NCBI RefSeq assembly: GCF_006345805.1 | Contig: NC_043012.1 | Location: 20,150,001-20,214,000 of the forward strand | Direction: 5' to 3' | DNA: 64,000 nucleotides | DNA from: Octopus sinensis | Taxonomy: Eukaryota | Position numbers and translations under genes: made by a program | Shown: one piece after another, positions 15,146 through 33,136 of the stretch | Position numbering within the stretch: the stretch's first letter is position 1 | Layout of the letters: the number at the start of each line of letters is the position of its first letter | The notes under the pieces: model-generated | What the model was told of the DNA's origin: nothing | Database searches by the model: none | What the model saw: only the letters and a program-made list of their open reading frames with translations

Positions 15146-15434
15146 CAGTTCTATATTTAAGAGATGGGGAATTATGTACATTATTTAGATTATTTACAAT
15201 GGGCGGATATTTGTTCTCATCTTCTTTGTCGTTACTACTACGCCATATATGTCCGTTGGTATATGCCGTAGTGGTTAAGAGTGCGAGTTACTTACCACAA
15301 GATTCCGAGTTCGATTCCAGGCAGTGACCTGACTACTACTACTACTACCACTACTACTACTACTACTACTACTACTACTACTACTAATAATAATAATAAT
15401 AATAATAATAATAATAGTAATAATAATAATAATT
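15146..15434 (+). mobile_element. tRNA-headed (AAT)n element preceded by an inverted copy of its own 3' tail
   Basis: 15146-15240 is the reverse complement of ~31300-31395; then A box (tgccgtagtggtt) and B box (gagttcgattcc), then (TAC)n(AAT)n. The head matches 30045-30077. Confidence 0.75.
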
Positions 15435-15684
15435 AGCAATTTAACAAACTAAAGGCAAGCTAATAGCGACCACTAAAGTTTGCATCAAATTCCAAAATCG
15501 TTGATTTGGCTATATCCGTTAGGGGCTTACCTCCCCTTGTCAGATTTGTGGCTATTTATGTTGTTTTTACTCTTATTCCAAGCAATACTTGTACTAATTA
15601 ATACCCTCTGTCACTTTAATGATCTCTCTCTATCTCTCTCTCATTGGTAGCTAAATATTTTTCCTTTTGCTTCAGCAAGGTAAC

Positions 15685-15707
15685 CAGCTGTATTCGTATG
15701 TAGTACT
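15685..15707 (-). CDS. Candidate host gene 23-nt microexon (STTYEYS)
   Basis: Acceptor gaattcttgcAG; phase 0->2 is exactly what is needed between 16699 and 14448, but the donor TG|GTTACC is weak. Confidence 0.3.
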
Positions 15708-16184
15708 CTGCAAGAATTCGTCAAGTAAACCACATGGGACTGTTGATGCCCGACTTCATTTGGTATGAGAAATCCACAGGTATTTGCGAGATAGTACGAG
15801 AGTTGAAGATAGATACACGCAAAGGTGGAGGTATCTTATTAGAATGTCTTAATTCTTAACTCCCACAATAGCAACGTTTGCAAAGTTCATGCACATAGTT
15901 ATCATTTGGGAGCACGTTGACGTACAGCCATATTTTTAAACATATGTGTGTGTGTGTGTTGTGTGGGCGTGTGTGTGTGCGTGTGTGTGTGTGTGGTGTG
16001 TGTGTGTGTGTGTGTGTGAGAGTGTACGTATATTACTCCGTAGACAATAGGTAGATCTTTCCATTTGCCGAACGGTATCCAACAGGATATTTTCAAGGAC
16101 TCCTTGACAATGAGTAGCACTTTCGCCATGAAATATACAATATAAAATATATTATTATTATTATTATTGTTTTTACGTATTATT

Positions 16185-16448
16185 TTTGTATTCATATTCG
16201 TGTAACATCGTCCGTTTTTCTGTCCTTGTTTCGTATACATTCGAAGCTTTCTTCCAAGGAATCTAATGCGCTTAGCTTAGTTTTTTTCCTTGGGGCTGGC
16301 CAGATTGGCGCAATCTCAAGATTAACCAGCCGAAATTGCGAGGATGCTCCGGTTCTTGACTGAAGATTGAAGGCTTCGAATGTCCCGTCCGTGTTTTTTG
16401 TATCGTATTCTAGATGTTTTGCGTTCTTGTTCCAGTTTGTATTTTTTA
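16185..16448 (+). repeat. Dispersed pLTR-like repeat with hammerhead-shaped remnants
   Basis: Stem ggctgg/ccagcc followed by GAAA; later CTGAAGA..ttcGAA; partial copy at 7445-7575; lies between microsatellites. Confidence 0.55.
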
Positions 16449-16698
16449 TACACACACACACACACATATATATATATATATATATATATATAGAGAGAGA
16501 GAGAGAGAGAGAGAGAGAGACAGAGAGAGACAGACAAACAGAGACACGGAGAGAGAGACACGCACACATCTACATACTACATCTACATACTTCAGCGTAT
16601 ATGCATTTCTTTTTTTTACTTGTTTAGAGAAAGACAAGCAATAAAAATAAATTATGATATATAAAATATATCAACATCAACAAATATTGATTGCTTAC

Positions 16699-16827
16699 GT
16701 GTAAGGAACGCAGTGGATAATCAGGCCAAATATTATGTATATAATTGGCATTTTCTTCTGTATAAACTGGAACTTTACAATTGCATAAAACGATTTTATG
16801 AAATTGCAATATCACTGTGAATATGAT
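16699..16827 (-). CDS. Candidate host gene exon 2 (IIFTVILQFHKIVLCNCKVPVYTEENANYIHNIWPDYPLRSLH)
   Basis: Acceptor cattattttgcAG, donor GTAAGC; 129 nt; only phase 0-0 is open. Confidence 0.65.
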
Positions 16828-29063: not shown

Positions 29064-30170
29064 GCAATAGCATATAAAACCAGCAAATGACTTGCATATT
29101 TTGTTACAAATGGGGTATGTATTGTCATGTCTTACAAGTCATTGATTTCTCTGTTCGCTACCTTCACTTTGTATTTTCATGACTTATGAGGCGCCATCGG
29201 CTGAAGCATTCCATACCGCATAGATTGTATATTGGATAAGCTACTAAAATTTACTTGCATATATGTATTTATATGTGTCCAGATTCCTGTCACAGAAACG
29301 CGATCAGAGTCTACACAGGTTGTGTTTTAGAGGATATATCATTTCTAACACTCGTAATAATGCATCGGGATTTAGAAATAAAAGTAGAAAATATCGAAAT
29401 TAGATGGAACATCAAAATTAACATTAAAATTAGAAAGAGAATGAAGGTAAAATATGTATGAATATTGCTGTACGCTCTTACCATAATTTTAAATTCAACA
29501 AATATAACCTATTGTAATTAATTAAACTAATAATTATTTACTGTTTAATCACTGTGCAAAAAGCATTGAAAAATAAAATTTTTGTAAATATTTCATTAAT
29601 TTGCAGTTGAAAGTCAAACGTCTAAGGTACCTCTGAAACTAATCACATAATTAATACTCACTTTGTGTGTTTGAATTCAAAATTATGAAACTGTTATAAT
29701 TAGAATAAATTATCGAAATGAGAAAACTATGCTGAAAAAAAAATTAGATAAAATTAAATAAAATATACATGTTAATCATACATATTCTATGATACATATC
29801 TCGGCATATGTATATGTAAATGATTAAAATTCCAGATAATGTTCTTTCCACGCACAGCGATTACAAAAGTTCTGTAAAATTTTATAAATCCCTGGTTAAA
29901 CTTTAAATCGCTGGTCAAAAGTGAAATATTTGCAACAGTTATTTCTACAGAGCAAAACCCCTGTAGTGTTGCCACAATTTGGAATCAAGTTTATCCCTGC
30001 GTCGATTTCTATCTTTTTCTTCTACAGGAAATGGCATATAGCGTAGATTCCGAGTTCGATTCAAGGCAATGGCCTGAATAATAATAATAATAATAATAAT
30101 AATAATAATAATAATAATAATAATAATAATAATGATAATAATAATAATATTAATAATAATAATAATAATA

Positions 30171-30727
30171 AAAGCCCTGATGCAGTACCAGGCAGTGGCT
30201 CTCATGGCTTCTGATCTTAACTGATTGGAAGTGTTATCATGTACATTGTTTTGTCTTGGTATAAAAGATGGGCTACAGCAAATATTCTGCTCAATACCAC
30301 AGATTTGCTTGTCAGTTGTTTGACCTTAACCAGTTGAGCATGTCCCTTAGTGGCTGACAATACGTGCATCTCTGATCACGAGCAGAAGTAGTGGGGGAGC
30401 ATCATGGCCATGTGTTGAGAGGGATTCTTTGGAGTTTGAATGGTTCACCTCTGGAAACATAGGTGTTTCGTTCAACATCCTAAGGCAACCCTTATTCAAG
30501 GACCTTTTGAGCAGGATGGGCTACTCAACCTGAAGAAAATTCTAACTGGGCCCCACCTGCAAGGTCATGTGCTGTTTATCTTGATATGAGATCACCATGT
30601 CGCGCACATATGGTTGTGATGCATGTGCCTGGTGTACCTTTATCAGACGGGTAGTCATGATGGGTATATTGGGCTTCGTATATTTTACCCCAGTGTCACT
30701 TTGATGGCATGAACTGCTCTCTCACTC
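30171..30727. mobile_element. ~555-bp non-coding element inserted in (AAT)n
   Basis: GC-richer block with sharp boundaries, (AAT)n on both sides, no ORF or TIR; resembles an abundant octopus repeat (from recall, unverified). Confidence 0.65.
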
Positions 30728-31222
30728 AATAATAATAATAATAATAATAATAATAATAATAATAATAACAGTAATAATAATAATAATAATAATAATAATA
30801 ATAATAATAATAACAGTAATAATAATAATAATAATAATAATAATAACAGTAATAATAATAATAATAATAACAGTAATAATAATAATAATAATAATAATAA
30901 CAGTAATAATAATAATAATAATAATAATAATAATAACAGTAATAATAATAATAATAATAATATAATAATAATAATAAAATAATAACAGTAATAATAATAA
31001 TAACATTAATAATAATAATAATAATAATAATAATAATAATAACAGTAATATAATAATAATAATAATAATAATAATAATAATAATAACAGTAATAATAATA
31101 ATAATAATAATAATAATAATAATAACAGTAATAATAATAATAATAATAATAATAATAATAACAGTAATAATAATAATAATAATAATAATAATAATAATAA
31201 TAATAATAATAATAATAATAAT
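30728..31222. repeat. (AAT)n array with recurrent AACAGT variant
   Basis: Direct reading. Confidence 0.97.
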
Positions 31223-31260
31223 ATCTTAGGAATGAGGACCCAAGTTCGAAATTTCCTCAA

Positions 31261-31306
31261 GACACCTGATGGAGGCTGGAGGGTACATCAGCCGAAACCT
31301 TGTGTT
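31261..31306 (+). ncRNA. Minimal hammerhead, degenerate copy
   Basis: gacac CTGATGG a ggctg gagggtacat cagcc GAAA cctt gtgtt: stems I and II intact; A9 and stem III altered. Confidence 0.6.
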
Positions 31307-33136
31307 AACAACAAACAAGATGAAGACAAATATCCATGAAATGTAAATAATGTAAATAATGTACTTAATTCCCCATCTCTTAAATATAGAACTGTTTGAC
31401 ATATAAATCTTACATATATCGGGGCATTCATCTTCTATTAAATTTCCTTGTGTTCCAAGTGTAAAAAAGATTATATCTTAGTTATATCTTCCATATATAA
31501 ACATAGACTTCTTTCCGTGCTTACAAGTGAGAATGGCTGATATTTTTTGTACACGTATAAGAAATATTGGTCCTTGTATTTTCAAGCAGCTTTCTTCGTC
31601 AAAACTGTATGACAAATATTACACTGGAATTGCTCGCTTGGTTACTTATTTACCTCTTTACTGAGTGCAGGATGCATATTCTCAAACACAGAGCATATCT
31701 AGATATTACAACTTATAATAATTGAAAATGACTTTATTTCTCTGCTCGGCAGTTGTTTCTTTGATCTTTTTTTTTTAAATTTAGATGTTCTTTATTTGAA
31801 TTATATGTTTCCTTTTACATTGTAGATTAATCAGAAACGGTTCTATTAAGCAATCCAATTAGTCTTAATTGAAAGTTTACTTTTTTTTTTCTTTGATTAG
31901 ACAATCAATATGTAAATTACAGTTTGCTATGGCTGCATGCAATAATCGATTGATACATTTCTGTGCTCTCGACTTGGCCCCTTTCTATCTCCTTATCTTC
32001 TATTTCTCACTCAGTGCCAGTCACTTTATCTTTTATTATCGATTAGATTTTCTCACAGCCGTTAACAATATATGCCTGTAGCTGTACGCACACACGCACA
32101 CACACAAACAAACAGACACACACACACACACACACACACACAAACAGACACACACACACACACACACACACACACACACACACACACATATATATATATA
32201 TATATTTATATATACATACATATGTATATATTTATATCAGCGTATTCAAACTTCTAGAATTTTATTTTAAAAAGTTACTATAATATATTTAATTGAATAC
32301 ATATTAATATATTACTCGAATTTTCTATATACTACTATTGTGACATGAAATTCTTAGAGCCTTATAAGATTTCCTTATGAACAGCATATATTTAATTTTA
32401 TGTTCTACGCACTACCAATAGGCTTGCAAGCAGACATTGGAATTAGTAAAACATTATTTAGTAATGACGTTGGCAAAGTTCTTTATAAGTAACGAGGTAA
32501 CAAAATATTATACACAAATGATAGCGATCAAAAATAAAAATAAGAACAGGAATGTGTCCCTGCACATCGATAAATGTTTTGCATATGCTTCCGGTAGATA
32601 GGCTGAAATTTATGACGTGAAAGTATTTCCTAAACAGAATAGATTACACGATATGAATAAAGTGGTTTCCGACGTTAATGGAAGCTATGCCATTTACGAA
32701 ACAGTTGTGTACTTCAAACAAGCTGAGTGATCAGAAATATAAATGACATTTCTGTAATTACCTGGCATTGAAAGCGTTCACAATCTAATATATCAGATAG
32801 TTTCCCCCTTAGCTAGTTCTCTGCAATCAACTCCAAAGGGATCACAATTAATAAATTTGCTATGCCATCGCCTTATTATGGAATTTGGGTATTTAATGAA
32901 GTAAGAATTAAAATGCCACTAATGAAACGCATGTATATATAATATATATATATATATATATATATATGTGTGTGTGTGTGTGTGTGTGTGTGTGTGTGTG
33001 TGTGTGTATGTGTGTGTGTGTGTGTGCGTGCGTGTCTGTGTGCGTGTCTGTGTATAAGGGTAGAAAATTTTGAGAAATTTTGATACCGGTGGCTAGCATG
33101 CGTAATAAAGTCAATAGACATCATATTTTCAAATAT

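Follow-up and report, generated by a model that had tools for sequence, protein, structure and literature searches.

Two loci in a 64,000-nt window of the Octopus sinensis genome (the whole stretch of DNA that was analysed) raise the question of what kind of retrotransposon can carry both a tRNA and a ribozyme. At these loci, a tRNA-like head with the A and B boxes of an RNA polymerase III (Pol III) promoter is associated with an (AAT)n run and a tail containing a hammerhead-shaped motif. In the preliminary description the combination was taken for a SINE paired with a separate Penelope-like element (PLE). This pairing is not borne out, because head, (AAT)n and tail all belong to an autonomous element of Penelope/Poseidon type. 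The head-(AAT)n-tail unit forms its terminal repeat (pLTR), not a separate SINE with a borrowed tail: an (AAT)n linker joins a tRNA-derived head to the start of the element's own ORF, which bears the hammerhead. Both loci are decayed short copies of this retrotransposon, and its head probably serves as an internal Pol III promoter (Table 1).

Table 1. Parts of the two short copies, in window coordinates.
Feature	Position	Strand	Details
Inverted arm, truncated at its 5′ end, with the final 90 nt of the pLTR tail up to the "long" 3′ end	15145..15234	-	79/90 identical to 31395-31306, E 2e-27
Short fold-back copy of the head's first bases at the twin junction	15235..15254	-	About 20 nt, sequence read directly; same junction type in many loci
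tRNA-derived head	15257..15331	+	A box (15264-15274) differs from the family majority at one position; B box 15307-15318
(ACT)n/(AAT)n linker	15332..15433	+	No tail after it in this copy
Second head with 30-nt internal deletion, B box intact	30033..30076	+	B box ends at 30076; 32/36 identical to first head
(AAT)n linker, 5′ part	30077..30171	+	
Unrelated young 554-bp non-coding repeat nested in (AAT)n, not part of the element	30174..30727	+	Best 40 copies share 99-100% identity and are bordered by (AAT)n at either end
(AAT)n linker, 3′ part, expanded	30728..31221	+	
pLTR tail, equal to codons 1-55 of the Penelope ORF and reaching to the "long" 3′ end	31222..31395	+	Start codon ATG at 31232; this copy has a premature stop at codon 36
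Minimal type I hammerhead (predicted)	31261..31306	+	Stem I 5 bp, stem II 5-6 bp, palindromic CG replacing stem III; predicted cut after 31301

The head of the first locus, with both boxes, stands as it was originally read. The inverted tail said to precede it directly is also real and matches the tail of the second locus, but a short fold-back copy of the head lies between the two, and within the window the direct copy lacks a tail. At the second locus, the head with its B box, the tail and the hammerhead-shaped motif had been recognized correctly; what had been missed is that this head starts at about 30033, that its deletion takes out the end of the A box, and that an unrelated repeat interrupts the (AAT)n. 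Family sequence lies near only 1 of the 29 other best copies of that repeat. The hammerhead copy in the window has substitutions at 31272 and 31299, in or next to the core, and Rfam and ARAGORN searches of head and tail called neither a tRNA nor a hammerhead. Searches with another PLE fragment of the window, at 46850-47450, and with Pfam GIY-YIG led to other PLE families; among the 60 loci collected, none had the tail attached to the ORF, and one held a separate short copy.

Genome-wide, the unit amounts to roughly 37,000 insertions. Short copies of about 300 nt prevail: 800 kb of evenly spaced DNA contained 11 clusters, 1 of them with the ORF, and in such random DNA short copies stand to ORF-bearing ones at about 10:1. 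A tail follows on the same strand downstream of 86 of 102 short heads in the fetched loci, so that the linkage proposed at the outset is not due to chance, and the same fixed order and strand hold in 43 of 49 heads. The copies are dispersed singles or inverted twins, not tandem arrays.

An autonomous PLE sharing the tail, as the preliminary description had supposed, was found. Ten of 75 intact heads are preceded by shared DNA coding for a C-terminus of GIY-YIG type, and the majority ORF of 829 aa (RT/GIY-YIG) begins in the tail, which continues into it in frame. The element reads, in order, ORF stop, 29 nt, tRNA-like head, (AAT)n, ATG, hammerhead and two alternative 3′ ends. The head comes straight after the ORF in 27 of 30 ORF-picked loci, the tail lies upstream of the ORF in 20 of 30 (4 of them duplicates of one insertion), and locus L288 holds a full unit in head-to-head arrangement, in keeping with the direct or inverted pseudo-LTRs that PLEs gain through partial tandem copies. 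The ORF matches RVT_1 (E 9e-9), and DKG, YVDD and a GIY-YIG-like C-terminus can be read in it by eye; the Pfam GIY-YIG model gave no score for the two C-terminal pieces tested, and a PDB search returned weak RT matches only. Its homologues carry PF00078, PF26215 and PF28514, and a full-length relative, P0025, has an N-terminus homologous to the peptide encoded by the tail (E 4e-6). Neptune and Nematis have an extra zinc-finger-like linker between RT and EN (PMC8557442); no C-x(2-5)-C-x2-C pattern of such a linker occurs in the majority ORF. From motifs and layout, the element would fall into the Penelope/Poseidon clade. When a head-less Poseidon-type family was sought in the same genome as a control, with an outside Poseidon-type protein as query, all 30 loci obtained were of the head-bearing family.

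Integration of the unit is Penelope-type. Inverted 5′ copies, two 3′ ends about 35 nt apart and a minimal hammerhead bear out the earlier proposal that Penelope machinery mobilises it. The 3′ ends of 147 arms are bimodal, at 135-161 and 183-187 of 187, with AT following the long end in 57 of 108 copies, and inverted twins pair one long with one short end almost without exception (50 of 51; 10 of 10 in fresh loci). Target duplications of 10-16 bp surround twin insertions, enclosing whole twin units; a duplication of at least 9 bp was detected in 38 of 51 twins as against 3 of 255 swapped flanks, and in 6 of 10 fresh twins. The one-long-one-short rule in twins so flanked provides evidence from in vivo insertions for priming of each target strand at a start site of its own. 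Such strand-specific start sites explain the long-known Penelope "tail", whatever the answer about the promoter.

The family majority retains both hammerhead motifs, CTGATGA and GAAACGTT, and both are intact in 68 of 204 spanning copies. The predicted ribozyme has a short helix I, an extra base between 9 and 10.1, G10.1-C11.1 and a palindromic 15.2-16.2, four features given for the minimal hammerheads of PLEs (PMC4209133). Folding z-scores of single heads and single ribozymes were not significant. The inverted arm of the first locus breaks off close to the ribozyme position, as originally observed, but this break is nothing special. Ribozyme cleavage as the determinant of copy ends was rejected: only 1 of 67 tail-internal 5′ ends lies at the cut site, and 13 lie within 10 nt of it where 14 are expected.

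The tRNA origin of the head, also claimed earlier, was upheld. The family majority is identical to genomic tRNA-Arg(TCT) at 51 of 78 positions (z 6.9) and to tRNA-Ala(TGC) at 47 of 76, in a comparison with 12 genes of 8 anticodon types whose identities do not establish the isotype. The A and B boxes have been kept while the cloverleaf has been lost; such boxes are only an indication of a Pol III promoter (SINEBase, PMC3531059), and no A/B-box pattern was found in 56 related metagenome PLE loci (of 80, with 24 short or duplicate ones left out). Judged from indirect signs in the sequence, the head is likely a Pol III promoter in function. Of the tail-picked, fresh and random loci, 61 have a head; 47 of them reach position +5, and 37 of these stop between −15 and +5, a bin that absorbs twin junctions, which can align out to −15 on a 5′-end reference lacking the 2 nt just before the head. 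The stop rate is 5.8% per nt at the head start, against 0.7 within the head and 0.4-0.8 upstream of it. Of 16 copies that have no aligned inverted arm, 11 end at this place as well, several of them beyond a local hairpin; in 2 of these 11, a short fold-back can be made out by eye. In loci picked by the ORF 5′ end, 4 of 30 have a head in the upstream repeat, and all 4 start at the head.

Two further observations concern the promoter. The B-box core is intact in 47 of 59 short copies as against 10 of 22 ORF-linked 3′ heads (p 0.005, not counting head-picked or L171-picked loci), a contrast noticed after seeing the data, among 11 sites looked at, and resting on 22 ORF-linked copies. CpG decay outside the boxes is alike in the two groups (75/347 and 57/234); the contrast could mark a subfamily. 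The sense strand of the 2.6-kb unit contains no run of at least four T, where 2.9-5.4 are expected under four nulls (P 0.027-0.001). In the same genome, 8 copies of 5 other PLE families have 8-15 such runs, and 1 of 44 related PLE ORFs with at least three expected has none; runs of at least four G are likewise absent from the unit. In unstranded RNA runs, no Pol III transcript and no start pile-up were seen, and 87% of the reads run on into unrelated flank. Depth at the ORF 3′ end was about 700-850, near half of the about 1,400-1,600 at the head, in a comparison that spans different references and a run labelled as another organism; by this ratio, the drop at the head may be smaller than in the fetched loci. 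The reads neither confirm nor refute Pol III transcription.

These features suggest a simple cycle, in which the tens of thousands of short copies likely arose as Pol III transcripts pasted back by the element's own enzyme. In every copy whose boxes are intact, Pol III would begin some bases ahead of the tRNA start and read on into the flanking DNA. The RT/endonuclease would then bind the first ~160 nt of the ORF RNA and start reverse transcription internally, as shown for Poseidon-Ac (PMC11167929). With such an internal start, flanking sequence would stay uncopied, so that any short copy could serve as a source in the manner of a SINE. Two nicked target strands primed at the two start sites would yield head-to-head twins. 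The promoter probably goes back to a tRNA, or to a simple tRNA-derived SINE ending in (AAT)n, that the element captured in its 3′ UTR, where the promoter of PLEs lies. Less certainly, the same promoter in the upstream repeat might transcribe the full 2.6-kb coding unit, and such transcription would account for the purging of TTTT terminators. The boldest form of this reading, that a protein-coding Penelope element swapped its Pol II promoter for a captured tRNA promoter and that the whole 2.6 kb is transcribed by Pol III and translated while spawning SINE-like copies, so that one sequence would be both SINE and driver, is possible but decidedly tentative.

The short copies might instead be ordinary 5′-truncated PLE copies, with no promoter role for the head. 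Heavy 5′ truncation is normal for PLEs (PMC8557442), no Pol III transcript appeared among the reads, and the majority sequence and variants are common to short and ORF-linked copies. Moreover, a hairpin of −9.5 kcal/mol overlaps the 5′-end pile-up and a second one gives a smaller pile-up at +16, so structure by itself does shape 5′ ends. This account is rather unlikely, since arm-less copies stop at the same place, several beyond the hairpin, the B box is better kept in short copies, the unit is free of T runs, and the boxes survive though the cloverleaf does not. Much less probable, and largely refuted, is an independent family of tRNA-SINEs mobilised in trans after acquiring its 3′ end from a separate PLE. 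The tenfold excess of short copies in random DNA and their agreement with the SINEBase sequence criteria would suit it, but the autonomous element has the same head at both ends, the 30 loci fetched with the outside Poseidon-type protein all belong to this head-bearing family, and no fixed variant site sets short copies apart, the differences from ORF-linked copies being ones of frequency at the B box and a 9-nt repeat.

A retrozyme or Sm-alpha-type element spreading through ribozyme-cut, possibly circular RNA is more improbable still. The intact majority hammerhead, the report of animal retrozymes as PLE derivatives and the combination of Pol III promoter and hammerhead in Sm-alpha speak for it; the dispersed single or inverted twin copies, in place of tandem arrays, and ends that ignore the cut site speak against it. 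Finally, there is a different family that inserts into (AAT)n and in several loci lies between head and tail, as would be expected if these were independent repeats meeting through a shared (AAT)n preference. That idea is refuted by the fixed order and strand, by whole twin units inside one target duplication and by the presence of both parts in the autonomous element, and deserves almost no credence. Pol III-driven copying of pLTRs by the element's own enzyme remains the preferred reading.

SINEs are defined as LINE-dependent (PMC3531059), and protein-coding retrotransposons are held to need Pol II (PMC10886601). [quoted passage not shown] Should Pol III transcribe the full unit, the question arises of how such RNA is translated. 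Short inverted repeats, present in tens of thousands, might moreover give rise to double-stranded RNA within transcripts. No SINE-like spread via Pol III transcripts was found for the Penelope class in the literature searched.

Among the closest known systems is Poseidon-Ac of the Penelope/Poseidon clade, for which an internal start of reverse transcription has been shown (Frangieh et al., 2024, PMC11167929). In both elements, the ORF start overlaps the hammerhead, two RT start sites define a "tail" of 30-40 nt, both target strands are cut and extended, and targets are AT-rich. Unlike the octopus element, Poseidon-Ac is described in the available portion of that paper without a tRNA-derived head or Pol III promoter, and in octopus twins the strict one-long-one-short pairing is counted in vivo. 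Animal non-LTR retrozymes and the non-autonomous Chlamys elements are, like the octopus copies, non-coding derivatives of PLE terminal repeats spread by PLE enzymes; they differ in forming tandem arrays and in that no tRNA head is reported (10.64898/2026.07.22.740005; PMC8557442), and the words "tRNA" and "polymerase III" are absent from the main text of the retrozyme preprint (10.64898/2026.07.22.740005). Sm-alpha and Sj-alpha of schistosomes likewise combine a Pol III-type promoter and a hammerhead in a short repeat. In the accessible parts of the reports on them, tandem units are released by ribozyme cleavage, single copies are unable to propagate and no PLE partner is named (PMC6765202, PMC2770079), whereas the octopus unit has a partner and its ends ignore the cut site.

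With tRNA-SINEs, the octopus copies share a short length (<1 kb), dispersal, a number far over 100, a head whose identity to a tRNA is at least 60% across more than 60 nt, A/B boxes and a 3′ region common to the driver (PMC3531059). They are unlike them in that the driver is a PLE, not a LINE, and owns the head itself. Their simple repeat is internal, the 3′ ends being two fixed sites inside the ORF start in place of a simple-repeat tail; inverted twins are frequent, and Pol III use is presumptive. Cassandra, Helenus and Ajax (TRIMp3), which are non-autonomous LTR elements, also have a small-RNA-derived Pol III promoter in a terminal repeat, proposed to stem from SINE insertion into that repeat, and their autonomous partners are argued to need Pol II (Kojima, 2024, PMC10886601). 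In the octopus, by contrast, the promoter-like piece lies in the repeat of a protein-coding element.

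The preliminary description proposed a tRNA-headed SINE mobilised by a separate Penelope-like element (PLE). An autonomous PLE sharing the tail was found, but it is not a separate partner: the same element carries head and tail. Of the 75 heads whose 5′ end is intact, 10 have upstream DNA in common, which encodes a GIY-YIG-type C-terminus. Among 30 loci picked by the ORF end (four of them duplicates of one insertion, and one the query itself), 27 run on into the head. In-frame tail sequence precedes the ORF in 20/30 loci picked by its 5′ part, and the tail therefore forms the first 52–55 codons of the ORF; a full-length relative has an N-terminus homologous to this tail peptide. 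The majority ORF has 829 codons and stops 29 nt short of the tRNA start. The family shows every PLE feature tested and, judging by motifs and layout, probably belongs to the Penelope/Poseidon clade. The 30 loci retrieved with an outside relative as query are all members of this head-bearing Penelope family. Copies are 88–94% identical to the majority. Stops or frameshifts interrupt every long copy examined, which suggests that the family is no longer active. One near full-length insertion lies within four 9-kb stretches (L212–L215) that are 98–99.8% identical and on different contigs, either a segmental duplication or uncollapsed haplotypes. The predicted octopus TNF-receptor-like protein model P0001 starts with the first 36 residues of the tail peptide; a copy may have been exonised there, or the gene model may be wrong.

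The unit, head-(AAT)n-tail, is the pLTR of this element. The best 40 tail matches in its own genome are 91–100% identical, and 11 clusters of the unit in 80 evenly spaced 10-kb stretches (two possibly being one insertion) give an estimate of ~37,000 insertions genome-wide (Poisson range ~19,000–67,000). The supposed linkage of head and tail holds on counting, the order being fixed in 86 of 102 short heads. The majority head has the A box TGGCGTAGTGG and the B box GAGTTCGATTCC; with 12 tRNA genes compared, genomic tRNA-Arg(TCT) is identical to it at 51/78 positions (z 6.9). Folding and tRNA scans indicate that both tRNA fold and tRNA score are lost from this head. The majority hammerhead shows, in its sequence, all four traits that mark the minimal hammerheads of Penelope elements (PMC4209133). 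The 14-nt spacer directly before the tRNA start repeats the first 12 nt of the head imperfectly and in inverted orientation, a pattern that would fit capture of the head via a fold-back junction.

The original observation in the window is real, but in part misread (see table). At the first locus, the head with A and B boxes is there, and so is the inverted tail piece beside it (79/90 identical to 31395–31306); a short head fold-back is present as well, and a direct tail is absent. The second locus keeps the outline of one head-(AAT)n-tail, with B box and hammerhead-shaped motif, but a separate repeat is nested in its (AAT)n, its head carries a 30-nt deletion and its ribozyme copy has two changes. 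The nested repeat is young and non-coding (99% identical among loci L062–L090), has a precise 5′ end, sits within (AAT)n, frequently in tandem stacks, and gave 10 matches in 800 kb of random DNA. It may be a non-autonomous repeat that depends on an R4/Dong-type element targeting (AAT)n. Candidate relatives of the decayed PLE fragment number in the thousands genome-wide, and some of them have open frames of 700–900 codons. A young PLE family (L277, L283, L284 and L127–L150) has many intact 781-codon frames with a C-terminal GIY-YIG, and a minimal-hammerhead pattern search of it gave no match. The palindromes could represent MITE-like elements or further twin insertions, or they could be artefacts of the assembly.

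Features of the two loci and other repeats, in window positions
Feature	Position	Strand
Inverted tail piece, first locus	15145–15234	
Head with A and B boxes, first locus	15257–15331	
B-box head, second locus	ends 30076	
554-bp repeat nested in (AAT)n	30174–30727	
Tail with hammerhead-shaped motif, second locus	31222–31395	
Decayed fragment, other Penelope-like family	46850–47450	+
Long near-perfect palindrome/inverted repeat	2828–3258	
Long near-perfect palindrome/inverted repeat	33137–33896	
Long near-perfect palindrome/inverted repeat	36681–37541	
Long near-perfect palindrome/inverted repeat	49149–49351	
Long near-perfect palindrome/inverted repeat	60776–61313	
Long near-perfect palindrome/inverted repeat	62898–63997	

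The short copies, which lack the ORF, are probably of Pol III origin; Pol III transcription of the full-length element is conceivable, though rather doubtful. For a Pol III head, 37 of 47 copies reaching +5 (counted from the tRNA start) end within −15 to +5, where the stop rate is 7–15 times that on either side. Copies without an inverted arm also end there (11/16), and full-length copies with an upstream head start at the head in 4/4 cases. Against it, a hairpin of −9.5 kcal/mol overlaps this pile-up site, and RNA-read depth on the ORF 3′ end is about half of that on the head; RNA reads, which are unstranded, show no start pile-up at the head. The B-box core is intact in 47/59 short copies versus 10/22 ORF-linked 3′ heads (p 0.005; a post hoc contrast on a small sample of 22 ORF-linked heads), and non-box CpG decay is equal in both. 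The better-kept B box is what one would predict if each short copy depended on its own promoter and the 3′ head of a long RNA were copied as a passenger. The 2.6-kb unit contains no T≥4 run against 2.9–5.4 expected, which also favours Pol III; other PLE families of the same genome have 8–15 such runs per ORF, and related PLEs elsewhere exceed expectation (497 versus 339), with 1/44 at zero. This argument is weakened by the likewise absent G≥4 runs, and one zero-TTTT relative without a tRNA head speaks against the Pol III reading. On metagenome contigs, two related PLEs (L414:3001–4906 and L410:137–2401) have ORFs without TTTT runs and ordinary hammerhead 3′ regions with no tRNA head.

The 3′ ends of the tail fall into two classes, long and short, ~35 nt apart. 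These correspond to the Penelope 'tail' (PMC8557442), for which Frangieh et al. (PMC11167929) identified two sites where reverse transcription starts internally. Of the twins, pairs of head-to-head inverted arms, 50 of 51 combine a long end with a short one; the single exception was scored as short when the window query was used. Target duplications of 10–16 bp occur at 38/51 twins versus 3/255 swapped controls, and 20 fresh loci gave 10 twins, all long plus short (10/10) and six of ten with target duplications. From this pairing within target duplications, we infer that a twin is a single insertion event, with the two target strands primed at different start sites.

No paper describing a Penelope pLTR with a tRNA-derived promoter turned up among the titles, abstract openings and text passages covered by the literature searches, with Repbase, Dfam and most subscription papers outside this scope. 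An entry for the family may thus exist under another name, and the O. vulgaris repeat library (PMC13282606) may bear on its novelty. The unit is a Penelope element with a putative built-in tRNA-type promoter and SINE-like progeny, probably more than a plain truncation artefact. It behaves like a SINE, yet its partner and its tail do not fit the definition of one (PMC3531059). OR1 and OR2 (Ohshima and Okada, 1994, as cited by others) are called CORE-SINEs, whereas the unit has no space for a CORE domain between head and (AAT)n. Cassandra, Helenus and Ajax have a Pol III promoter in the terminal repeat, but of non-autonomous LTR elements (PMC10886601). Sm-alpha shares the hammerhead and the Pol III promoter, putative in the unit, but is tandem (PMC6765202, PMC2770079), and retrozymes are among the closest precedents (10.64898/2026.07.22.740005).
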